DNA of 18,293 nucleotides. Origin: a virus. The stretch lies in UHGV virus genome UHGV-0114973. One strand, given 5' to 3'. The notes under the pieces were generated by a model. That model worked only from the letters and a program-made list of their open reading frames with translations. It had not been told where the DNA came from and made no database searches. Of this stretch, positions 1,876-16,635 are shown piece by piece; within the stretch, counting starts at the first letter, position 1, and every line of letters begins with the position of its first letter. The position numbers and the translations under genes were made by a program.

Positions 1876-4791
1876 ATGGCACAATATCCTATTGATATTA
1901 AGATTGATACCGGTTTGGCTGACCGCAATCTTAACAATCTTAACAGTCAGTTAGATCAGACTGAAAAATCAACCATAGCTGCTGCACAGGCTGCTAATCA
2001 GTTATCTGTGGTTGAACAGCAGGTTGCAAAAGCAGCACAGCAACTGGCACAACAACAAGCTAATCAGGCTGCTAAAGCTGTTGCTGTAGCTAGGGCTACG
2101 CGTGAAGCAGCACAGGAACAATCACGCCTGTTAGCAACACAGGGTGCTGCTGCTCGTGCGGCTGGTCAGACTGTTAATAATCAACAGAAATTTGCTGAAT
2201 TAGCCAAAATTATCAAACAAGCAACTGCTGATGAAAAGAAAGCAATTGACGATTTGACTAACAGTCTTAAAAAACTTGATAATCAGCAGAATAACACTAA
2301 TCAATCAACACAAAAAACTAAAGGCGCTCTTGAAACACTTGTCACTGGTGCAAAAGCGTTTGTTGGTTTACAGATTGCAGGGTCACTTTACGACTGGGGT
2401 AAAGCGTTTGTAGATACTGCAACGAAAGTTGAACTGCTACAGAGTCGCATTAATCTGTACACATCAACGTCGGTTGAATCACAACAGATTTTTGCGCAAT
2501 TAGTACAACAGGCTAACCGTGCTGGTACAGATATTGACGCGGTGGCAAACAGTTTTCAGCGTTTTGCCGCTGCTGGTAAAGATGCCGGGATTAGTAATCA
2601 GGTTATTTTACAGTTTACCGACAACCTGCAAAAAATGGCCCGTGTATCTGGTGCATCCAGTGCTGAAGCATCTGCTGCTATTTATCAATTATCACAGGCA
2701 TTTGCATCTGGTCGTTTGCAGGGGGATGAATTCCGATCTGTGTCAGAACAATTACCAACTGTTCTTCAGGTGCTGGCTAAACAAATGGGTGTCACCACGG
2801 GGGAACTTAAACAATTAGGTTCTGATGGTGAAATTACCCGTGATAAATTGTTGCTGTTAAACAACGCGACTGATGAAATCAGCGCACAGTTCGATAAACT
2901 TCCTCGTTCTGTAGATCAGTCTGCCACTGCGTTACGTAACAACCTGTCTGTGGCTATTGCTGAACTCGATCAGCAGATTGGCGCATCTAAATTCCTGGCT
3001 AAATTCCTAGACCTGTTAGCAGGTGGTGTATCGGGTACAACAGAGTTAATAAAAGCCGCTGCAGGTGCTGACAAACTGGCACAAGCCACTAACAATCTGA
3101 ACAGTGTTACCGCAAAACGTGAAGCCAATCTGAAAGAAATTGCAGATCTGGAAGCACAAATTCAGCGTGGGTATACAACACAGTCAATTGGTGGGTATAC
3201 AAAATTTGTTGGTGACACCAGCGCTGCACAGAAGAAATTAAACGAACTTAAAAAACTTGATGTTCAGTTAACAAAACAACAAGCAGAAGCACAACGAGGG
3301 GTTGTTCAGGCTACTCCATTGGGTAAGGGTGTTGCTGAAAATCTTGCAAATCAGGCAAGCACTTTACAGGCGAGTATTACGGCTGCTCAGGCTGCCGGAC
3401 GTCCTGATGCCGAATCTGCAAAACAGATTAAAAACCTGAAAGAACAGATTACCTATACCCAGGCGCTTGCTGACGGTAACTATGAACTGGCAGCAAGTCA
3501 GAAACTGGGTAACAAAGCAACAAAGGAACAGATTGCAGACTACGCTGCGTTGTTGAAACAACAGGCAGAATATAAAGAAAATCAAAAAAACCAGAAGAAA
3601 TCAGCGAGTGCTGAAGCATCTGCGGCTAAACGTGCACAGAAAGAACTGGAACGTAATCAGGCTGCTAACCAGAAATACCTGAAAACGCTTCAGGATAAAA
3701 TCAATGCTGGTAATTATGATGTTCAGTTAGCACGCGAACAGGTTCAGATTGCTTTAACACAGGGATCGTCTGTTGAACAACTTACAGCAACGTATCAGAA
3801 AGAATATCAGGTACGTCAACAGTTAACGCTGGCTTCACAACAGGCGGAAGCACAGTCACGACTGAATAAAGACGCGACTGATGCTGAACGTGCCGCTGTT
3901 GATGCACATGTAGCTGCATTGCAACGTCAACAGCAGATAGCACAGTTAAGCGCAGATGTAAAACAAGTTGACATTGATGTGAAAGCACAGTTGAACCCGT
4001 ATCAATCACAAATTGATCAGGTTAATCAACAGGAAGCAACACGTCTTAGTATTATTCAAACTGCCCGTGAACAAGATTTAATCAACGAGCAACAATACCA
4101 GGATATGAAAACGCAGATTCAACAGGCTGGGGAACAAGCCCGTACGAATCTTGCAAATGCTAACTACAGCTTGTTGCTACAATCCAGTGCTGATTTTTTG
4201 GGTCAAATGGCTGCTGGTCTGGCACAATCTAAAGGTGAGCAATCAAACGCGTATAAAGCGATGTTTGCACTGTCTAAAGCCTTTAGTATCGCACAGGCGA
4301 GTATTAACCTGTGGACAGCCGTTAGTCAGGCTATGGCGTTGCCGTTCCCGGCGAATATTCCGTTCATTGCACAGGCTTTATCATACGGGACAAGCGTATT
4401 AGGTAACATTCAGTCTGTGGCTGCAACAGGTTTTGCAACGGGTGGTTATGTTAAAGGTCCGGGTACAGGTCAGAGTGACAGTATAAACGCACGTTTGAGT
4501 AATGGTGAATTTGTCAGTACCAAACAGGCTACGAGTCGTTATCGTAGCACTCTGGAAGCAATGAATCGTGGGACATACACCCCCGGATCTGAAGGTGGTT
4601 CATCACCTAATATTCAGGTTCATAACTACGGTGGTGAACGTGTTCAGGTGAAACAAGGATTAACACGGGATGATGTAGTGCTTATCATAGGTGAAGAATT
4701 CCCACGACAATCAGCGGCACAATGGAATGACCCGTACAGTCAGACGAATAAAGCGTTCAGGTCTAACTATGATGCGAACAGGAAAATATAA
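1876..4791 (+). CDS. tail tape measure protein
   Basis: 971-aa ORF, very Ala/Gln-rich with long coiled-coil-type heptad stretches and a Gly-rich hydrophobic C-terminal region. Follows the chaperone pair. At about 0.15 nm per residue the length implies a tail of roughly 145 nm (inference). Confidence 0.9.
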   Translation: MAQYPIDIKIDTGLADRNLNNLNSQLDQTEKSTIAAAQAANQLSVVEQQVAKAAQQLAQQQANQAAKAVAVARATREAAQEQSRLLATQGAAARAAGQTVNNQQKFAELAKIIKQATADEKKAIDDLTNSLKKLDNQQNNTNQSTQKTKGALETLVTGAKAFVGLQIAGSLYDWGKAFVDTATKVELLQSRINLYTSTSVESQQIFAQLVQQANRAGTDIDAVANSFQRFAAAGKDAGISNQVILQFTDNLQKMARVSGASSAEASAAIYQLSQAFASGRLQGDEFRSVSEQLPTVLQVLAKQMGVTTGELKQLGSDGEITRDKLLLLNNATDEISAQFDKLPRSVDQSATALRNNLSVAIAELDQQIGASKFLAKFLDLLAGGVSGTTELIKAAAGADKLAQATNNLNSVTAKREANLKEIADLEAQIQRGYTTQSIGGYTKFVGDTSAAQKKLNELKKLDVQLTKQQAEAQRGVVQATPLGKGVAENLANQASTLQASITAAQAAGRPDAESAKQIKNLKEQITYTQALADGNYELAASQKLGNKATKEQIADYAALLKQQAEYKENQKNQKKSASAEASAAKRAQKELERNQAANQKYLKTLQDKINAGNYDVQLAREQVQIALTQGSSVEQLTATYQKEYQVRQQLTLASQQAEAQSRLNKDATDAERAAVDAHVAALQRQQQIAQLSADVKQVDIDVKAQLNPYQSQIDQVNQQEATRLSIIQTAREQDLINEQQYQDMKTQIQQAGEQARTNLANANYSLLLQSSADFLGQMAAGLAQSKGEQSNAYKAMFALSKAFSIAQASINLWTAVSQAMALPFPANIPFIAQALSYGTSVLGNIQSVAATGFATGGYVKGPGTGQSDSINARLSNGEFVSTKQATSRYRSTLEAMNRGTYTPGSEGGSSPNIQVHNYGGERVQVKQGLTRDDVVLIIGEEFPRQSAAQWNDPYSQTNKAFRSNYDANRKI

Positions 4792-6153: not shown

Positions 6154-8677
6154 AGTCATCTATCACACTAATCCTGTTGAACACGCTGATAACGTTGACT
6201 TTGGTGAATGGATGCTGAAACGCTGGCCCGTGGGTACAGTTCGTCCGCGTGGGTTACTGATTTATAAAAACGACGAAAACATTACCCAAAAGTGGGTTAC
6301 TGACCCCAGCGTATTGACTGATCCTGATGCTGTTTATCATATTTATGAACTACCAAAAGGTGGAGTGGTTAGTGCAATAACGAAAGTTATTAGCACAATT
6401 TTAAATCCCATTTTAAAATTGTTCATGCCGAATACCAGTGCATCGGCTAATCTTAAGAATTCACGTTCAGCATCGTCTAACAACGCGCTTCAGGGGCGTA
6501 CTAATGCTTCACGACCGGGTGAACGTATTTCTGATATCCGCGGTCGTGTACTGGCATATCCTGACCTGTTAATGGACTACCGAATCTTCATTGACCGAAC
6601 AGAATATGAAGTTCAGTTTCTGTGTCTGGGTGCTGGTGAATACGAAGTCGAAGATGTTCGTGATGGTATTACACCTGCTGTAAATATCAGCGGTGAAAAA
6701 TTAGACTTTTATAAAAAAGGTAATGCACCAGGGTATGGTTCTCCATATATGAATATCGGTGGTGCAATTGATATTAACACTTTTCCGATCATGGTTGCTA
6801 AGTCGTCGAACGAAGCAGACGGATCTGAAGTCAAGCCACCAAACTATGCTGATATCAGCAAAGCGAGTTTTAAAATTTACAGCACTGGTGAAATTGATAC
6901 TACGATTACCAGTGATGATAACACTACGATTGACTGGTCGGAACGTGCACCAATCGGTAGTAAAATTCGTTTATCACAATTTTACAGTTTTACACCTAAT
7001 ACGTTACCGTTAAACACGTATGTACGTAATGACCTGTCCGGTGAATATGATGTTATTTATGCAGGTGAGAATACGTTAATCATTGATACTACTGGTCGTG
7101 AAGGTTGGGATGCTCTGTCTGAAAGTGGTCAGGCTGCATATACACAGGCTTATTTGCGAAACGACGGTTACTGGGAATTTGAAACCACTGAAGGAAGTGG
7201 AAGTATTTTATACAAGTTTTCACCGTCTCTTGACAGTACCACACCGTATATTGTCGGGCCTTATCTGATTGACAGTGCGGATAAGTTGATGATTAATCTT
7301 TATGCACAGAATGGTGTGTATAAAACTGATGGCGACATTTATCCGTTCACCTGTAATTTCCAGGTAGTATTGTCAGACCCGAACGGTGTGAAAGCGAATG
7401 TGACACACTCTATGTCTGTTCGCGGTCGTTATACAGAAGCCGTAGGTAATTCATTAATTGTGGATAACCCTTTTGACGGTCCTGTCAACGTGTCTGTAAG
7501 ACGACTATCAAATACAGATAAAGACTTCGAAGGGTCTGTTGTTGACAACATCAAGTGGCGCGATTTATACGCTATCACGAATGTTTCTCCGCGTTCCTAT
7601 GGTGATGTGACATTGATCCATACAGTGACAAAAGCAACAAACGCTGCACTGAAACAAAAAGAACGTAAATTAAACATGATTGCAACACGTGTGTATAACG
7701 ATGTTGCAAGTAGTAATTTTGCAGACGTTGTAATGTCAATGCACACAGATCCTTTATTTGGTCGTCGCACATTGGACACTATTGATCGCGATGCTTTATA
7801 TGCTGTTCAGGAACAACTTCTTGAATATTTTGGTGACCAACGAGCAATTGAAGTTGGCTATACGTTTGATAATAACAGTACGACGTACGAAGAAGGATTG
7901 GACACTATCTGTAACACGGTGAATGTTAAACCGTATCAGATCGGTAGTGTATTGTATTTCTGGCCTGAATTACCACAGAACCAGTCCGCAATGCAGTTTG
8001 GTCACGCATTTAAGATCCCTGACAGTGATAAACGTACGCGCTCTTTTGCGCCACCTAAAGAATATACTGGTGTTCAGGTTAAATACTTCGATCACGATGA
8101 AAAATCATATTTATACGTAACTAAAGGTGAGGAAACAAACCTCAATAAGATAGATCTTGTCGCATGTCAGTCGCGATATCTTGCAAATATCCGTGCTAAT
8201 CGTGAAATGAATAAGTTACGTTATCAACGTATTACCCACGAGTGTACAGCGCTTAGTATTGGATTACAGGCTACCCCAGGTATGCGAGTGGATATGATTG
8301 ACAATACCCGTATGAAACAACATGAAGGTGTTGTAGTTGACGTTGACGGTTTAACACTTATTCTTAGTGATCCTGTTACGTTCACCACGGGTAATACATA
8401 CAGTATAACATTGACACACCGACTGGGAACACTTGAAAACATTCCTGTAACTGCCGGGGATGATGAGTTTTCCGTGGTGATGGCGTACCAGCCATCTGAA
8501 GAAATTTATACAGGATGGTTGCGTGACCGTACAGCATATGTGATCCGTGCTGATGATGAGCGTAGCAAATTAGCAATGCTTGTTCAGAGTATGGAACCGT
8601 CAGGAAGGGATAATAACTATCAGGTAGGTTTAACGTGCATCAATTACGATGCACGTTATTATCAGGATGATTTATAA
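6146..8677 (+). CDS. tail tip/hub protein (gpJ-like, without a long C-terminal receptor-binding extension)
   Basis: 843-aa ORF starting at a GTG with GGAGA 7 nt upstream, overlapping the previous stop. Large beta-rich protein at the end of the tail assembly operon. Confidence 0.6.
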
Positions 8678-8706
8678 CAAGTTATCTAAGCCGTTGGCTT
8701 GTTTTT

Positions 8707-9096
8707 GTTGCAACATCTGAGCAGTGGAAAGATAAGCAGACAGGAGAAAAGAAAGAGCAGACTGAATGGCATCGCGTGGTCATCTTCGGTAAACTTGCTG
8801 AAGTTGCAGGAGAATATCTTCGTAAAGTCTCGCAGGTGTATATTGAAGGCCAGCTTCGCACTCGTAAATAGACTGACAGCAACGGAGTAGACCGATACAC
8901 TACGGAGATTGTCATTCCACAGATGGGTGGAGTTATGCAGATGCTTGGCGGTAAACGTGATGATTCTGGTCAGCAACCACGCCAGCAACCTAAAGGCGGA
9001 TGGGGAACAAACCCGCAACAGCAGCAACCAAAACAACAAAGACCACAAGGAGGAAATGAGCCTCCGATGGACTTTGTTGACGACATTCCGTTCTGA
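8707..9096 (+). pseudogene. ssb: ssb remnant: 5'-truncated, with an in-frame amber codon at 8869-8871
   Basis: Frame-1 translation reads [81 protein letters not shown]...[16 protein letters not shown]. This is collinear with E. coli and F-plasmid SSB from about residue 37 to the C-terminal DDIPF tip. The conserved Trp codon TGG is replaced by TAG. No start codon and none of the N-terminal OB-fold residues are present. Confidence 0.8.
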
Positions 9097-9106
9097 TGAT
9101 AAATAT

Positions 9107-9126
9107 AACCCCGCCGAAGCGGGGTT
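9107..9126. terminator. bidirectional hairpin terminator between convergent units
   Basis: AACCCCGC, loop CGAA, GCGGGGTT. Flanked by A-rich sequence on the left and TTGTTG on the right, so either strand sees a hairpin followed by a U-rich tract. Sits between the ssb remnant stop (9094-9096) and the tailspike stop (9136). Confidence 0.5.
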
Positions 9127-9135
9127 GTTGAAATA

Positions 9136-11397
9136 TCATGTTATGTTGCCATATGTTGCTGATGATACCTGATTTATCACAGCGGAAGAACCTGAACCTT
9201 TACGTATACCGTTTACATCAGCTGACATTAGTGCCGGTAAGGTTACTTTAGAACTCCCGCCTGCATATCCAAGATTACCCGCTGTTGTACCAGAAGTCCT
9301 AAGGCCAGTTATTAGGAGAGAACCGGCGCTACAAACAAACCCAGAGAAAGGTGCTGCTGGTATACCTTGAATATTAACCAGATCTAAATCTGCAACAGTG
9401 TAATTGCAATTTGAAATTAATGCAGGTATCAAAGACCCATAAACACCTAAACGTAAGCGTACATTAGATGATTGGTTCTTTAGCACCGCAACAGCCGTTT
9501 CAGTGGCGGAAGAGCCTGTCACGTTGTAAACATTGAAATCCAACTTCAGAGGCGCTCCTGGCTTACCCGCAAAACCAGTTGTCGAATCATCAATAAGTCC
9601 GTAATTAACGTTCATTACGTTACCCTGAATTACTCCAGTTGCCCCAGATCCTGGTGAAGCAGGGTTGAACGCAATGGCCCTGTAAGTAACTACGGTAGAT
9701 GATGACTCACCGTTACCTTTAATATTAACATTGGTAATTGAAACTCTGTTATCTATTGTACCAAAGTAAATAGGAGTCGCCGGGCAGGCCTTACTCTCCA
9801 AACCACTAAGGGTTACAAGGTTTATGCCAGTCTGTGTAATCAAAGCGGGCCATGCTGGTATATAATTACCAAATGCTAAATCGGACACCTGGTTAGAGAA
9901 TCCTTTAATAATGGTGCCATTAGACACGCATGAGCTAAAGGCCACTCCGTTCACGCAGTGCTCAACCAATAGATTGCCGAAAAAATGGTCAATAAGTGAC
10001 TCAAACTGGATACCAACACCGCCTCGCCTGACACCATTCGCGTCTGTACGAAGATATTTAAACCCAGCAGACCAAATATCGTATGTATAAACACTATCAG
10101 AGCTGGAGATTAAAAGACCAGCACCAGTGCGTCCCGCCCATCGGGCGTCACCTGTAGCATTAAAATCGTAAAATGTAACTTTAAATCCTTGAAATGTGTG
10201 CATCTCTCCGCTCATGTCACTAAATTCAATCGCGGCATTGCTTTCTTCTGAAGGATTTGTCAGCACAATATAAGACAATCCCATCCCTGCACCAATCATT
10301 CCTCCGCCATTTTTGTTGTAACGAATCGTAGAAGGTGACGTAACGCGATACCATAACTTAAGATGGCTATCTATTCTGTATTTTCCCGGTGAAAGTAGGA
10401 TATATGACTGGAAATACTCGGATTGATAATAGCTGCCAGCAACTACCTCCACGTTAAATTCACCACACGTCGCATGCCATGCTTTATGGAACGCGTCAGT
10501 GCAGTCAATGCTTGAAGCTAACTCATCATAAGTGTTAACTGTTTTTGCTCCGAACCATTCAGGTCTAACAGGTCCCGTTGGAACTTTCACAGATGGTACA
10601 GTTAGATAATTGGCGATAAAATCATCTTCTGTGTCAAATATTTGATAACAACCAGCATCAATTTCTGCATTAAATTTAACGACTGCACCGTTTCTTATTT
10701 TTAATACTGCACCATGAATAAAAGTAACAGGAATATTAAATGTAATGTTTGAATTTATAAGATATGTACCGGGGACAAATACGACAGGATTGCCAGATGA
10801 CGAAAGATTTTCTAGAGCGGCATTTATCCCCGGCGCATCATCAGTGACACCATCACCAGTGACATTAGCCATATCTTTAATTGATATATGCTCAGATAGC
10901 CAATCGTGAACAGTCTTAATTTTAGAACCGTTTATTGGTTGCATGGTTGCTATAAGTGAGTCGCCAAAACCGTCAGCATCTGAACTTAAATTAGCACGCA
11001 ATGAAGCATCACCAACACTAACCCATCCACCAAGACCAATGCCACCAGCAGTTTCCGGAGTTGAACCAGTATCAACTGTTTTAGGAAACTCGCCATCCCA
11101 GCGGTAATATTCACCAGTTGCTTCGTAACGCAATACCTGATTAGGTAATGTAAGTATCGCACCATCTTCGAAGCTATCCATCGTTATATAGCCGACCTGA
11201 GATATAGCCTGATTGTACAGGGTTTCTAAACCATCAAGTGTCTTGTTGGTCACTGATTGACCACGGATCGTATCGGTAACATCCAACGCGTGTTTACCGT
11301 TTTCATCACGACTTTTTGCAACGTGTTCAATATGTAAAATCGCTTGTTTGCCTGTTTTCAAATCATCAGCACTGATATAATCGTTACAGTTAGCCAT
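9136..11397 (-). CDS. tailspike protein, probable polysaccharide depolymerase with a right-handed beta-helix
   Basis: Start taken at the ATG 11397 (MANCNDY...) with GGAGA 7 nt upstream, rather than the TTG at 11424. After an N-terminal module of about 190 aa comes NVTGDGVTDDAPGINAALENLSSSGNPVVFVPGTYLINSNITF, the hallmark start of pectate-lyase-type beta-helix tailspikes. The remainder is Gly/Ser/Asn/Thr-rich. Confidence 0.8.
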   Translation of the reverse strand: MANCNDYISADDLKTGKQAILHIEHVAKSRDENGKHALDVTDTIRGQSVTNKTLDGLETLYNQAISQVGYITMDSFEDGAILTLPNQVLRYEATGEYYRWDGEFPKTVDTGSTPETAGGIGLGGWVSVGDASLRANLSSDADGFGDSLIATMQPINGSKIKTVHDWLSEHISIKDMANVTGDGVTDDAPGINAALENLSSSGNPVVFVPGTYLINSNITFNIPVTFIHGAVLKIRNGAVVKFNAEIDAGCYQIFDTEDDFIANYLTVPSVKVPTGPVRPEWFGAKTVNTYDELASSIDCTDAFHKAWHATCGEFNVEVVAGSYYQSEYFQSYILLSPGKYRIDSHLKLWYRVTSPSTIRYNKNGGGMIGAGMGLSYIVLTNPSEESNAAIEFSDMSGEMHTFQGFKVTFYDFNATGDARWAGRTGAGLLISSSDSVYTYDIWSAGFKYLRTDANGVRRGGVGIQFESLIDHFFGNLLVEHCVNGVAFSSCVSNGTIIKGFSNQVSDLAFGNYIPAWPALITQTGINLVTLSGLESKACPATPIYFGTIDNRVSITNVNIKGNGESSSTVVTYRAIAFNPASPGSGATGVIQGNVMNVNYGLIDDSTTGFAGKPGAPLKLDFNVYNVTGSSATETAVAVLKNQSSNVRLRLGVYGSLIPALISNCNYTVADLDLVNIQGIPAAPFSGFVCSAGSLLITGLRTSGTTAGNLGYAGGSSKVTLPALMSADVNGIRKGSGSSAVINQVSSATYGNIT
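11373..11381 (+). promoter_or_regulatory. candidate extended -10 promoter (TGaTATAAT) for the lysis genes, inside the tailspike 5' coding region
   Basis: TG at 11373-11374 and a perfect TATAAT at 11376-11381, about 40 nt upstream of the ATG at 11424. No good -35 element. The divergent start codons are only 26 bp apart, so a promoter must lie inside a neighbouring gene. Confidence 0.25.
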
Positions 11398-11423
11398 CTT
11401 TAAGTCTCCAGGAGTGTAGAACA

Positions 11424-11702
11424 ATGTCTGATAACCCGGTGTTGAGGTATTGGCCTATAATAGCATTTGTTGCCACGGGGTTGGTAGGTTACGGGGTAAC
11501 TCAAAACCAAATCAATTCTAATGAAAAAGATATTGCAGATGCAAAAACCTATGCGCATGAGGCGCTTAATCTGGCAAAACGAGTGGAATCCCGAGTGGAT
11601 GTTCACGACATCAAAATCGAATATCAGGCCACACAGAACGCTGAAATCCTCACCAGTGTTAAAGAGCTAACACAGTCAACAAATGAAAGCGGAACAACGT
11701 AA
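11424..11702 (+). CDS. small single-pass membrane protein, lysis-associated (holin or antiholin candidate)
   Basis: 92 aa. One N-terminal hydrophobic segment (WPIIAFVATGLVGYGV) followed by a charged helical region. AGGAG 9 nt upstream. Immediately precedes the endolysin gene. Confidence 0.4.
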   Translation: MSDNPVLRYWPIIAFVATGLVGYGVTQNQINSNEKDIADAKTYAHEALNLAKRVESRVDVHDIKIEYQATQNAEILTSVKELTQSTNESGTT

Positions 11703-11717
11703 AACCGGGAGTAAGCA

Positions 11718-12125
11718 ATGAGTAACTTTAAATTCAGTCAGAGAAGTGAAAATAATCTGAAAGGGGTTAACCCGGATCTTGTGAAAATCGTGCGTCGGGC
11801 ACTTCTGTTATCACCCGTTGATTTCGGTATCACAGAAGGTTTACGAACTGTTGAACGACAACGACAACTGGTTGCGGCAGGTAAGAGGCAGACGATGAAC
11901 AGTAGCCATATCACGGGTCATGCTGTTGATGTGTTTGCCTACCCTACATCAGCCGGGTCATGGGAATGGAAATACTACGAACAGATCGCCACTGCATTTA
12001 AACAGGCTGCAAAAGAACTGAATATTCCTGTTGAATGGGGCGGTGACTGGAAAACACTGAAAGATGGTCCACACTTCCAGTTACCATATGCGAAATATCC
12101 GGCGCGAGATAACAATCATGGATAA
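11718..12125 (+). CDS. endolysin, L-alanyl-D-glutamate peptidase (peptidase M15 / VanY-like)
   Basis: 135 aa with SHITGHAVDV and a following Asp/His pattern matching the zinc-binding motifs of T5-type M15 endolysins. GGGAG ribosome-binding site. Followed by holin and spanin genes. Confidence 0.85.
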   Translation: MSNFKFSQRSENNLKGVNPDLVKIVRRALLLSPVDFGITEGLRTVERQRQLVAAGKRQTMNSSHITGHAVDVFAYPTSAGSWEWKYYEQIATAFKQAAKELNIPVEWGGDWKTLKDGPHFQLPYAKYPARDNNHG

Positions 12126-12348
12126 GTTCAGCATTTTACGTAACACAACCGGAGGGATCTCTTTAAGCCGCGCACAAGCGGCTTTAGGCTTCCTCGTGGT
12201 AACAGGGATTCTGATTTATCAGGCCGTGGACCGCACACTTGATGATACAGTGCTGTTAACCTATTTCGGTTTCTGTATAGGTCAGTATGTTGGTGCTAAA
12301 AAAATCGCTGTAGATAAACAACGAGGTACGCCAAATGACAACCCGTAG
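12118..12348 (+). CDS. putative holin (two predicted transmembrane segments)
   Basis: Start taken at the ATG 12118 (MDKFSIL...), which overlaps the endolysin stop (ATGGATAA). 76 aa with hydrophobic segments AALGFLVVTGILIY and LLTYFGFCIGQYVG. Confidence 0.5.
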   Translation: MDKFSILRNTTGGISLSRAQAALGFLVVTGILIYQAVDRTLDDTVLLTYFGFCIGQYVGAKKIAVDKQRGTPNDNP

Positions 12349-12733
12349 TGTGTTAATCACCGTTGTTGCAACTGTTCTGGTATTAGGCGCTGGTGCGTAC
12401 ACGTGTTACCACGCGGGATATAAAGCACGGGCAAATGAAGAACGTCAGGAACGTTTAGAGGATGCACAACGGGAACAACAACGGTTAAAAGCACAACAGG
12501 AATTGGCTGATGATGTACTTCGTGGTTTAGCTGACTGGTCGCAGAATACTAAAATCGTGGAAATACGACATGAAAAGACTAATACTGTTTTTCGTAACGA
12601 GTGTCTTACTTCTGAATATCAACGCTTGTACAACGAACGAGTTACCGAAGCAGAAGCCCGTTTATCAGGCCGCATTAGTTCAGAAGTGTCAGACCGAAAA
12701 CCTTCCACGGCTGAACGGTCTGACAGGAAGTGA
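12335..12733 (+). CDS. i-spanin (Rz-like inner-membrane spanin subunit)
   Basis: 132 aa. N-terminal transmembrane segment (VLITVVATVLVLGAGAY) followed by a charged coiled-coil periplasmic region. Contains an out-of-frame o-spanin ORF. Confidence 0.65.
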   Translation: MTTRSVLITVVATVLVLGAGAYTCYHAGYKARANEERQERLEDAQREQQRLKAQQELADDVLRGLADWSQNTKIVEIRHEKTNTVFRNECLTSEYQRLYNERVTEAEARLSGRISSEVSDRKPSTAERSDRK

Positions 12734-12818
12734 TTCAACAGATGTTAATGACCAGTGGTTAGATATTTATTTCAAATGTGCAACTATTCACAACGCATTA
12801 GTAGACAGTCTTCAGTAA
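12570..12818 (+). CDS. o-spanin (Rz1-like outer-membrane lipoprotein), overlapped arrangement
   Basis: 82 aa starting in the +1 frame inside the i-spanin gene and running 85 nt past its stop. Signal peptide MKRLILFFVTSVLLLNINAC with a lipobox-like Cys, though Asn at position -2 is atypical. Confidence 0.65.
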   Translation: MKRLILFFVTSVLLLNINACTTNELPKQKPVYQAALVQKCQTENLPRLNGLTGSDSTDVNDQWLDIYFKCATIHNALVDSLQ

Positions 12819-13031
12819 ATCTTCAACCGATACTTCAATCCACGATGCGGGAACCGGATATTCAGTCCGGTACATGAACAAGGATGTTCCTATCAACCCG
12901 TGTGGATCTGTTTTAATCCCTCGCATGTTCAACAATGGAAAAAACTGTTCGCGTGTTTGTGGCAATCTTGCAAAGCGTCCTGTCGGGCGTTTAGCAGGAT
13001 CCATAGGGTTGAATTCAACGATTGTGGACAT
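12798..13031 (-). CDS. hypothetical protein (77 aa), last gene of the minus-strand operon
   Basis: ATG at 13031-13029 with AGGAG 8 nt upstream. Overlaps the Dam-like gene's 3' end by 17 nt and the o-spanin 3' end convergently by 21 nt. Confidence 0.4.
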   Translation of the reverse strand: MSTIVEFNPMDPAKRPTGRFARLPQTREQFFPLLNMRGIKTDPHGLIGTSLFMYRTEYPVPASWIEVSVEDLLKTVY

Positions 13032-13536: not shown

Positions 13537-13882
13537 GTTCCGGTACGCTCTCCACACTGTAATAAACGGGGATGCCCAGACGTTCAGCTTCTGCAATTTC
13601 TGCTAGCGTACCAGACGAACGACGATAATCAGGAAGCACCAGAACAGCGTCACAGCGGCGCATAATTTCTAACGTACCTGATAGGTAGTATTCAGGTTGT
13701 ATATTGCGTAAACCGCCGTCAAAATCCCACAATTCGGTGTTCTTGTGAGGAATAACCGGGAACCATCCCGGACGTTGTAAAGCCAGTCGTTTACCTGCCT
13801 GTTCAGCGCGTGACACGTTACGGGATGTTTTAAGCGCACAATCAGCACGATAAGGCCCGGCAATGTAACAGAGTTTAATCAT
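13529..13882 (-). CDS. nucleoside 2-deoxyribosyltransferase-like (NDT / DUF1937-type fold) protein
   Basis: Start taken at the ATG 13882 (MIKLCYIAGPY...) with AGGAAA 6 nt upstream. N-terminal YIAGP motif and a later D...SSGTLAEIAEAERLGIPVYY segment match my recollection of the two signature segments of the deoxyribosyltransferase / Rcl-type Rossmann fold. Overlaps both neighbours by 8 nt. Confidence 0.6.
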   Translation of the reverse strand: MIKLCYIAGPYRADCALKTSRNVSRAEQAGKRLALQRPGWFPVIPHKNTELWDFDGGLRNIQPEYYLSGTLEIMRRCDAVLVLPDYRRSSGTLAEIAEAERLGIPVYYSVESVPEHG

Positions 13883-14778: not shown

Positions 14779-16635
14779 TTACCGAAGTGGTGCAACGAGT
14801 TTTTCAGCTTCTTTGATGTAAAAATCATAATTGAGCGTTGCCCGGTTAAAACGTTTCATGTCGTTACATTCCGTGGTCAACCAACCTTTGCACACGGACA
14901 TACGGCGCTCAGGCGCGTCAGGGTTCAGTTTCAGTGATTTTGCCAGCGGTGGCATGACTTTTGTCAAAGGTGCACCATCTGTACTGACGTAATAACGGGT
15001 AATGTTCTGAACCTGTTTATCACCCCATAGTAATTTGCTGTTACGTGGTACTTTCGTCACTAACATGAAATCGTGAATATCTTCGTGTGATGTTATAAAA
15101 TCACGAATGTCTTTATTGTGTACCAGTGCTGCTTCAGCCGCTTTTGCGACAACCTGCATACTGTGGTTTTGATGCCAACCCAGATCAACGCTGTGACAAT
15201 AAGCGCCTTTACGTTTAACTTTCTTACCGCCTTCGTAAACAGCGATGTAATTATTTACATCGCGGATAAACATCACGTCATAAATTGCTTCTTCAAGCTG
15301 GAGTCTGGTTAATTTTTCCCACGCGTGACGAACCTGTTCTACTTGTCCGGTAAACACTCGTGGCACGTAAACCGTAAGACCATCTGTGTTAGCCTGGATC
15401 ATGGACAAACCAGGGATTTTCAGAAGTTCTTCAGCCAACATACACAAAAGTAACTGTCCGTTAATCGTAATAGCCATTGTGTAAGCAGGATCGTAGAATG
15501 GACTGTATACGTTATTACTGTCACCATACACACCGTTTAACGCCAGTTTTAACATTGCATTTTCTGGTGTACCTTTCGGGTAACTGGAACGCATGTCGTA
15601 AACATTTTTATAAATGGTGCAAAATTGTTTTCCCAGATGTGCCGGATAAAGTTCATTACTGATCGCAAGGTTCGGATAAAAACTGGCAACGTCCAGATCG
15701 ATGATCACATAATTTTCAGTGGACCTGATAGTTTGAGACTCAATAGACCCGTGGATACCACCCGTACCAAAATCAAACGAGAACCCGTTAATGTCTGCGC
15801 TTAAATCTGTGAATACACCTTTTGTTTCAGTGATAACCTGTTGACGTAACCAGTTAAGAACACGATTAAATTCAGGCTGTTCAAAACGGACATAAGGGAA
15901 AATCACACTGTTCAATGCGATTGATGGTCTGTGCGTCTGTCGTGGTTTTCTGCTACCCGGTTCGAAACATTGAATACCTGATTTTTCAAGTTCCATGATG
16001 AAATATTCTTTACCGATTTTCGTGTCGTTATGGTTCATGAAATTACGACCGTATTTAGCAGAAAGTTCACGACGAAAATCTATCAGCTTTTTACTGTGTT
16101 TATAAAACATCAAAGTCGCTTTCAAATCGTGCATCAGATATTGACGAAGCGTATCAATTTGAGAATCGGTTAAATAAGTCCCTGGCGTAAACGGAAGGTC
16201 TTCAATGTTTTCCATTCTCATATTGAATTCAAGTGTTTTCAGACTTGTTCGTTTTGCCTGATTGTCGAAATGATGAATTTTATACAAATCAAGCTGGGGA
16301 ACTATCCAGTCTTTTTCCCACACCATATGAGCAAAACGATTTTCATCACCAGCGTTAATTATTGAATCACCTTTTTTATAAATGTCTGCGTTGGTGATAT
16401 ACATGATGTTGTTCAAAATAGAATGCTGAACAGGATAGTCGTAACCCAGATTGTTATAACCAATTTCTTCAGCACGATGTTCACGCAAATATTCTGTGAA
16501 CAGGTAAAAAGCCTGACGATCATCGCGACGATGTGAAATCTCAAAAATATAAGGCGTTTCGGTTAACGCGTGAATAGCACCGAACAGAAAAACATTAGGA
16601 TAGTTTTCAATATCGTGAACGTAAGCATCTGACAT
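14779..16635 (-). CDS. compact family-B DNA polymerase with a 3'-5' exonuclease domain
   Basis: 618 aa. Exo I D8-I-E10; Exo II N62-L-G-Y-D66; Exo III Y166-L-M-H-D170 (spacing close to phi29 DNA polymerase); motif A D315-V-A-S-F-Y-P (Dx2SLYP-type); motif B K363-L-A-L-N-G-V-Y-G (Kx3NSxYG-type); motif C N416-T-D418 (an NTD variant of DTD). Motifs are only 48 and 55 aa apart and no TPR-like insertions are evident. Confidence 0.7.
   Translation of the reverse strand: MSDAYVHDIENYPNVFLFGAIHALTETPYIFEISHRRDDRQAFYLFTEYLREHRAEEIGYNNLGYDYPVQHSILNNIMYITNADIYKKGDSIINAGDENRFAHMVWEKDWIVPQLDLYKIHHFDNQAKRTSLKTLEFNMRMENIEDLPFTPGTYLTDSQIDTLRQYLMHDLKATLMFYKHSKKLIDFRRELSAKYGRNFMNHNDTKIGKEYFIMELEKSGIQCFEPGSRKPRQTHRPSIALNSVIFPYVRFEQPEFNRVLNWLRQQVITETKGVFTDLSADINGFSFDFGTGGIHGSIESQTIRSTENYVIIDLDVASFYPNLAISNELYPAHLGKQFCTIYKNVYDMRSSYPKGTPENAMLKLALNGVYGDSNNVYSPFYDPAYTMAITINGQLLLCMLAEELLKIPGLSMIQANTDGLTVYVPRVFTGQVEQVRHAWEKLTRLQLEEAIYDVMFIRDVNNYIAVYEGGKKVKRKGAYCHSVDLGWHQNHSMQVVAKAAEAALVHNKDIRDFITSHEDIHDFMLVTKVPRNSKLLWGDKQVQNITRYYVSTDGAPLTKVMPPLAKSLKLNPDAPERRMSVCKGWLTTECNDMKRFNRATLNYDFYIKEAEKLVAPLR

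Follow-up and report, generated by a model that had tools for sequence, protein, structure and literature searches.

Divergent neighbouring genes whose transcripts overlap at their 5' ends are found in bacteria and in phages. Among them are the excludons of Listeria and the overlapping transcripts of Staphylococcus, which are processed by RNase III. In coliphage 186, the stronger promoter of the pR/pL pair inhibits the weaker one ~5.6-fold, mainly through sitting-duck interference. In the Ecl18kI/SsoII restriction-modification systems, divergent promoters had been predicted, but mapping showed them to face each other; the R promoter has a TATTAT -10 and no -35, and its start lies opposite the M start codon, outside the intergenic region, the competition between the two promoters being accounted for with a 'sitting duck' model (Protsenko et al. 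2009, PMC2760811). Here, we describe the junction between the tailspike gene and the lysis cassette in UHGV virus genome UHGV-0114973, a stretch of 18,293 nucleotides (the window), in which two predicted promoters would be arranged in a similar way.

A megablast search with positions 10900-11900 returned 9NA-like siphophages (genera Nonanavirus and Sashavirus), the closest relative being Escherichia phage KarinMuster_Bas82 (89% identical across 900 bases and 97% across the junction); judging from these matches, the window comes from a 9NA-like siphophage. All 9NA-like relatives have the same gene order: rightward tail genes ending in a large tail-tip protein, a single leftward tailspike or tail-fibre gene, a rightward lysis cassette (holin, endolysin, small membrane protein, i-spanin and o-spanin) and leftward DNA-metabolism genes. 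According to the BASEL collection paper, the biology of this group is hardly known.

Two Predicted Promoters inside Neighbouring Genes

On balance, the junction is probably a compressed control region between two late units, each with a sigma-70 extended -10 promoter situated inside the codons of its neighbour, the two promoters facing each other. The 26-nt gap between the genes would hold only two back-to-back ribosome-binding sites, the promoters having been pushed into the neighbouring coding sequences. Thus, a host sigma-70 promoter within the tailspike gene would drive the lysis cassette, and a second one within the holin gene, which is absent from an earlier note on this DNA, would drive the tailspike. 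The elements of this arrangement are the following:

11373-11381, plus strand: extended -10 TGATATAAT, predicted to be the promoter of the lysis cassette; it lies within tailspike codons 6-9 (D-Y-I-S) and has no -35
11388-11389, plus strand: predicted lysis transcription start (A/G), 7-8 nt past the -10, leaving a 5' untranslated region (UTR) of ~36 nt; placed from the usual sigma-70 spacing
11465-11457, minus strand: extended -10 TGCTATTAT, predicted to be the promoter of the tailspike; it lies within holin codons 12-14 (I-I-A)
11450-11451, minus strand: predicted tailspike transcription start, with an A at ~11450 and a 5' UTR of ~53 nt; placed from the usual -10 spacing
11388-11450, not assigned to a single strand: predicted overlap of both 5' ends, ~63 nt, perfectly complementary, containing both Shine-Dalgarno boxes and both start codons

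On the lysis side, TG (11373-11374) is followed by A (11375) and by TATAAT (11376-11381), a 6/6 match to the hexamer, and 42 nt separate this -10 from the holin ATG. It is the sole TGnTATAAT (TGNTATAAT) in the window, where 0.95 are expected, so that one occurrence is unremarkable. When positions were scored with simple position weights, using E. coli hexamer frequencies, the element ranked 1 of 36,514 positions as an extended -10, and 28 if a -35 was required. The place of the element is less expected than its presence: after synonymous resampling of both genes with the codon usage of the window, 4.1% of the trials had an extended -10 this good at 25-80 nt upstream of the holin ATG.

Conservation was followed across 25 distinct junctions taken from phage records, IMG/VR and metagenomes, which form ~5 clades 72-79% identical to each other; only ~12 junctions were contributed by the IMG/VR and metagenome scans. 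The metagenome contig CYGL01004108.1 was left out of these statistics; in this short contig, tailspike codons 1-28 are fused directly to holin sequence in inverted order, which is probably a chimeric assembly. CTGATATAATC is invariant in 25/25 junctions, and over the first 45 tailspike and 66 holin codons only 13/59 degenerate codons with an unchanging amino acid are invariant. The third bases of tailspike D6 (GAT), Y7 (TAT) and I8 (ATC) are fixed, while those of N3, C4, S9, A10, D11 and D12 are free; at D6 the amino acid itself varies and the third base is kept. The ATC of I8, a triplet used for 29% of the Ile codons in the window, provides the G of the TG motif, and its invariance indicates that a preference for A/T-rich codons near gene starts is not the explanation.

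Extended -10 promoters need no -35, and no claim is made for the hexamer TGTTTT at 11353-11358, exactly 17 nt upstream, which matches TTGACA at only 1/6 positions. The tailspike codons at this place, K14-T15 (AAA ACA), are invariant in all 25 relatives. The earlier note had located a perfect TATAAT with an upstream TG in the first tailspike codons, and had set the two gene starts at 11397 (minus strand) and 11424 (plus strand), 26 bp apart. All these positions are exact, and the top rank of the element, its conservation and its counterparts in 9NA speak in favour of a promoter. Taken together, these data make an embedded lysis-cassette promoter credible.

The counterparts in 9NA come from its whole genome, which has three exact TGnTATAAT sites, two of them 31 and 45 nt upstream of gp33 and of the holin gene gp56, which are the first genes of rightward units. 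A further rightward unit begins with gp37, and TGATATTAT is found 33 nt upstream of it. By its sequence, the lysis-side element is thus a member of a recurring class of TGATATWAT sites that precede rightward units without a -35 (in 9NA, 13704-13712, 16158-16166 and 34144-34152). The leftward clusters of small genes in 9NA are mostly preceded by full promoters of the TTGACG-16/17/18-TATAAT type (minus strand, 1424-1429, 3966-3971, 8669-8674, 15844-15849 and 22609-22614, the last with TTGATA as -35), and these two apparent promoter styles may reflect a division between late and early genes.

On the tailspike side, the minus strand carries TGC (11465-11463) followed by TATTAT (11462-11457), a 5/6 match to the hexamer, 59 nt before the tailspike ATG. 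This is the best minus-strand extended -10 in 11400-13000, i.e., in the 1.6 kb upstream of the tailspike, and the scores of both elements were reached together in 0.45% of the synonymous resamplings. TGnTATnAT is kept at this place in 25/25 junctions, only hexamer position 4 being variable, and the other clades have TGTTATGAT or TGTTATAAT at the same site of the holin gene. Holin I13 is always encoded by ATA, which accounts for 14% of the Ile codons in the window. At codon 14 (GCA or ACA) the amino acid varies between A and T, and the third base is always A, corresponding to the T of the TG motif. I12 is freely encoded by ATA, ATT or ATC, a variation that alters only position 4, among the least conserved of the -10 hexamer. 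On both strands, the TG dinucleotide is invariant in the 25 relatives, and the hexamer, the TG, and the strand and distance relative to the gene served agree with an extended -10 in both elements. A scan for consensus -35/-10 pairs reported neither junction site. Another minus-strand candidate, TTGCAT-18-TAGAAT with its -10 at 11520-11515, was rejected, as it is not conserved beyond this clade.

The Junction in Distant Relatives

A search with the first 60 tailspike residues retrieved three groups: the 9NA group; a second one formed by Gorganvirus phages of Proteus, Morganella phage Henu15 and a phage from bat faeces; and Enterobacter phage Mulvp2. The Proteus, Morganella and bat-faeces phages, with 56-58% identity over these 60 residues, have the same layout with a gap of 47-50 nt, and their first lysis gene is a holin of PHROG 198 without significant similarity to the holin of the window (pairwise E = 0.046). 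In this group, the lysis side shows TTGCAA-18-TATAAT, with the -35 in tailspike codons 3-5 and the -10 in the gap, and on the tailspike side a perfect TATAAT lies inside holin codons 6-9. In the Proteus phages, the latter belongs to GTGACA-17-TATAAT (11/12 matches), the best match in a 4-kb scan of Proteus phage Isfahan, and in Tbat2_2 and Henu15 the tailspike side carries TGATATAAT. Thus, a -10 directed towards the tailspike is found 60-66 nt upstream of the tailspike ATG in two unrelated holin genes, and these distant relatives provide the strongest support for the promoter pair.

In Mulvp2 and three IMG/VR relatives, the gap is ~95-125 nt long and contains TTGTCA-17-TAGAAT or TTGTAC-17-TACACT directed to the rightward neighbour, with space for a leftward promoter. 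The three groups form a compaction series, from ~95-125 nt (Mulvp2-like) to 47-50 nt (Gorganvirus-like) and to 26-28 nt (9NA-like).

Ribosome-Binding Sites in the Gap

The gap of 26 bases (11398-11423) lies between the minus-strand ATG, read from CAT at 11395-11397 and starting at 11397, and the plus-strand ATG at 11424-11426. Among the 9NA-like relatives it measures 26, 27 or 28 nt, and these lengths, which differ by non-multiples of 3, indicate that the gap is not coding. CTCC (11406-11409), A (11410) and GGAG (11411-11414) follow one another within it, giving two boxes:

11406-11409, minus strand: Shine-Dalgarno box (GGAG) for the tailspike, whose ATG at 11397 follows after 8 nt; relatives carry GAGGG here, listed as a ribosome-binding site in the annotations of phages Sasha and Solent
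11411-11414, plus strand: Shine-Dalgarno box (GGAG) for the first lysis gene, whose ATG at 11424 follows after 9 nt; likewise a ribosome-binding site in the Sasha and Solent annotations

It had been claimed in the earlier note that the interrupted palindrome CTCC-A-GGAG at 11406-11414 serves both genes. The coordinates are right, and each half is a well-spaced, conserved Shine-Dalgarno box 5-10 nt before its start codon. The region is not shared, though: the boxes occupy separate bases (11406-11409 and 11411-11414) and are adjacent without overlapping, so that no nucleotide acts as Shine-Dalgarno sequence on both strands. The palindrome arises because two GGAG boxes on opposite strands adjoin, and it is lost in other clades. 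GGAGTGT is invariant in 13 phages. The gap of the Salmonella, Klebsiella and Carvaje clades, which has 2 additional nt, contains CCCTC-TG/CT/GT-GGGAG, with both Shine-Dalgarno motifs kept, 2-3 nt apart, and no palindrome.

It is very improbable that CTCCAGGAG is a palindromic operator through which a phage or host regulator would control both genes together. The 9-mer CTCCNGGAG is indeed hardly expected by chance (0.06 occurrences per window) and stands exactly between both starts, but it comprises only 4+4 bp, the CCCTC-(TG, CT or GT)-GGGAG of the other clades keeps the two ribosome-binding motifs without any symmetry, and no inverted repeat of at least 8 nt was found in 11250-11600. A hairpin hiding the ribosome-binding sites was also rejected, since CTCC and GGAG separated by a loop of 1 nt cannot pair in one RNA and folding is no better than in shuffled sequence; the folds of either predicted 5' end, in the window and in 9NA, were not more stable than those of shuffled sequence (Z-scores +0.2 to +1.7, both strands). 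No Rfam family exceeded its threshold anywhere in the window.

Consequences of the Face-to-Face Geometry

While the genes diverge, the predicted promoters would face each other, with starts at ~11388 (plus strand) and ~11450 (minus strand). The typical polymerase footprint extends from ~-55 to +20, which would place the two open complexes at 11333-11408 and 11430-11505. As these do not overlap, there would be no clash while both polymerases wait, and each fired polymerase would run into the other promoter. Thus, polymerases coming from one promoter might displace those waiting at the other (the 'sitting duck' situation) or collide with them, and the paired 5' ends might be cut or blocked from translation; either interference or RNA pairing would link the expression levels of the tailspike and of the lysis genes.

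The tailspike mRNA must include 11397-11409, and for this reason it would overlap any transcript starting at ~11388, wherever the tailspike promoter lies. The proposal of the earlier note that overlapping divergent transcription is forced at this place therefore stands as far as the overlap is concerned, provided that the lysis promoter fires at ~11388. The description as simply divergent does not, since the conserved partner element at 11465-11457 makes the predicted promoters face-to-face. Mutual regulation by interference or by antisense pairing appears plausible from this analysis.

A more far-reaching proposal, to which we give little credence, is that the face-to-face pair would work as a ratio or timing device, in which the stronger lysis promoter would knock out waiting tailspike polymerases and the reverse, and a ~63-bp duplex would be cut by RNase III or would hide both ribosome-binding sites. 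The output of holin and endolysin would then be stoichiometrically tied to the tailspike mRNA, as a checkpoint linking virion completion to the lysis clock, and the shrinkage of the gap would have been selected for this coupling and not for mere genome economy.

Transcription Units and Terminators

Two hairpins separate the tail operon from the 3' end of the tailspike gene:

8687-8701, plus strand: hairpin resembling a terminator, with a T run, immediately behind the tail-tip gene; the annotation of phage Sasha has a terminator at the corresponding position
9107-9126, not assigned to a single strand: GC-rich hairpin AACCCCGCCGAAGCGGGGTT, 10 nt past the tailspike stop, between a convergent SSB-like remnant and the tailspike

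The second one is likely a two-way terminator. At this place Bas82 has additional sequence and another hairpin, and equivalent two-way hairpins occur between the tail-tip and tailspike genes of the Proteus and bat-faeces phages. The position of these hairpins argues against simple read-through from the tail operon into the lysis genes, which fits a lysis cassette in need of a separate promoter, although read-through would be possible, the T tails being weak. At the other end of the cassette, the plus-strand o-spanin gene, which stops at 12818, shares its last 21 bp (12798-12818), tail to tail, with the first leftward gene, which encodes 77 residues and stops at 12798; there is no terminator between these convergent units.

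The SSB-like reading frame (8700-9096, plus strand) is situated between the tail-tip and tailspike genes and ends in a typical DDIPF tail. It contains an in-frame TAG (8869-8871) where Bas82 has TGG (Trp), the N-terminal third of bacterial SSB is apparently missing, and 9NA has no gene at this position; from its sequence, it looks like a decaying insert.

Alternative Explanations

Several points weigh against a pair of embedded promoters. TGnTATAAT sites are not enriched, with 1 in the window (0.95 expected) and 3 in 9NA (~3.3 expected). A TTGACA-like -35 is absent 16-18 nt upstream on the plus strand, where TGTTTT or CTGTTT is found, and on the minus strand the best candidates are CCAACC or TACCAA. 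The 11465-11457 element ranks only 14 in the window, its score was reached in 10% of the synonymous resamplings, and the I-I dipeptide of the holin may be kept for protein reasons. Moreover, the ~5 clades formed by the 25 junctions mean that few independent lineages stand behind the conservation statistics, which were calculated after the motif had already been seen. Leftward transcription of the replication genes could continue across the lysis cassette and reach the tailspike. Finally, a literature search found no transcript mapping for any member of the 9NA-like group.

Some of these points would be accommodated if there were no local promoters at all and the junction were only a tight pair of translation starts, an explanation that we regard as unlikely. 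The TATAAT-like strings would then be by-products of the conserved tailspike N-terminus and of A/T-rich codons, the lysis genes being read from the tail operon and the tailspike from leftward transcripts crossing the lysis cassette. The unremarkable motif counts, the lack of a -35, the weak T tails of the hairpins at 8687-8701 and 9107-9126, and the absence of a terminator where the leftward replication operon abuts the lysis cassette all agree with it. So does the unusual DNA conservation of the segment that spans the first ~57 tailspike codons and the holin gene, as expected of a recombination backbone for tailspike swapping. However, a preference for A/T would give ATT or ATA at tailspike I8, and not the invariant ATC from which the G of the TG motif comes; the third positions that are fixed and those that are free match the needs of a -10 on both strands; and promoter-like pairs recur in distant relatives with an unrelated holin, as well as in the Mulvp2-like relatives with a gap of 95-125 nt.

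Alternatively, the lysis promoter alone might be real, with the tailspike expressed from a promoter further to the right or by read-through, so that the transcripts would overlap without a face-to-face pair. This would agree with the much greater strength of the plus-strand element (a perfect TGnTATAAT of rank 1, against rank 14 and 10% of resamplings for its partner), and the TTGCAT-18-TAGAAT candidate (-10 at 11520-11515) offers a second minus-strand site in this clade. That candidate is not conserved in other clades, whereas the 11465-11457 element is, and has counterparts in unrelated holin genes, one of them, in Proteus phage Isfahan, scoring best of all full sigma-70 matches within 4 kb; we therefore judge a solitary lysis promoter to be quite unlikely.

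Genes Flanking the Junction

9136-11397, minus strand: tailspike gene, 753 residues plus stop, from the list of open reading frames; Tail_spike_N and pectate-lyase-like domains (Pfam), with the homologous ATG in the cloned 9NA tailspike JN185344
11424-11702, plus strand: first lysis gene, a holin matching PHROG 24402, 92 residues in the window, shortened by a 26-bp deletion near its 3' end
11718-12818, plus strand: rest of the lysis cassette, with an M15 endolysin, a small membrane protein, an i-spanin and an embedded o-spanin

The open reading frame 11718-12125 is the M15 peptidase, as identified by a domain match. A tailspike start at TTG 11424, proposed by the open reading frame finder and present in the annotation of AVIO78A, was rejected in view of the 26/27/28-nt variation of the gap, the GGAG 8 nt before ATG 11397 and the start of the cloned 9NA gene (JN185344) at the homologous ATG. 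In AVIO78A (position 1697), the tail fibre is annotated from a TTG overlapping the holin ATG, which is probably a mis-annotated start. In 9NA, gp68 and gp69, annotated 12 nt apart, were considered as a second tight divergent junction and discarded, since TTGCAA-17-TATGAT and GGAG-ATG are found ~100 nt further on; gp69 (43133) is annotated from GTG, probably another mis-annotated start codon.

The tailspike keeps an N-terminal adaptor of ~57 residues, and its distal receptor-binding part is mosaic. Similarity to PJ16, AVIO78A, SP062 and SP069 ends at ~11228 (~codon 57), and the stretch 10997-11193 is ~82% identical to tail-fibre genes of Skatevirus phages Bas77-80. These breakpoints would fit a receptor-binding part swapped onto a conserved N-terminal adaptor and junction.

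With respect to the holin, 26 bp near its 3' end (11683-11702 in the window; 3685-3746 in record L001) are missing in the window and present in Bas82, PJ16 and two environmental contigs. The deletion is flanked by short TGA/TGAAAG repeats and shifts the frame, replacing the last 20 residues, DLKVVIEGLKAEQRKTGSKQ, by ESGTT (92 residues instead of 107), and it also abolishes the ATGA stop/start overlap with the endolysin gene. Possibly this is a genuine variant with an effect on the timing of lysis; an error of assembly would also explain it.

Significance and Comparison with Known Systems

If the arrangement proposed here is true, the needs of the promoters constrain synonymous codons at the starts of structural and lysis genes. 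This would have practical consequences in phage engineering, since tailspike swaps, or the recoding of the first codons of either gene, could silently destroy the promoter of the neighbour. The junction would also offer a simple, repressor-free system for the study of transcriptional interference together with 5' antisense pairing, and Bas82 grows on E. coli K-12 with restored O-antigen.

The junction of the Mulvp2-like phages resembles that of the window: the N-terminus of their tailspike is homologous, and the tailspike and the rightward neighbour would each have a promoter of their own. It differs in that its gap of 95-125 nt allows transcripts that need not overlap, whereas the 26-nt gap of the window is too small for any promoter. 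Excludon-type pairs share with the window the divergent neighbours, the complementary 5' ends of the mRNAs and a possibly antagonistic expression, but in excludons long antisense RNAs run across whole neighbouring genes, in contrast to the ~63 nt, symmetrical, predicted here.

The 186 pR/pL and P2 Pe/Pc pairs have close convergent promoters and short overlapping 5' transcripts, such as are predicted in the window. Callen et al. (2004) reportedly placed the 186 pR and pL start sites ~62 bp apart, a distance similar to the ~63 nt predicted in the window. The 186 pair is, however, a lysis-lysogeny switch of a temperate phage under the CI repressor, whereas the window belongs to a virulent phage, both units are late and no repressor is evident.

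Ecl18kI likewise combines divergent genes, facing promoters and a -10 without a -35, the layout of the window being predicted from sequence. In that system, the intergenic region is longer, and the methyltransferase switches the balance between the promoters by binding an operator there, unlike the window, where the gap has 26 nt and both promoters would lie inside coding sequence. A regulator or operator biasing the pair, as CI does in 186 and the methyltransferase in Ecl18kI, was not found in the window, where 11250-11600 was covered for inverted repeats of at least 8 nt. Taking into account that face-to-face promoters for divergent genes are already known, the junction is not a new mechanism. 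If both promoters are real, it would be a natural phage case of divergent genes with convergent promoters placed wholly inside each other's coding sequence, in which three related groups show the steps of compaction.

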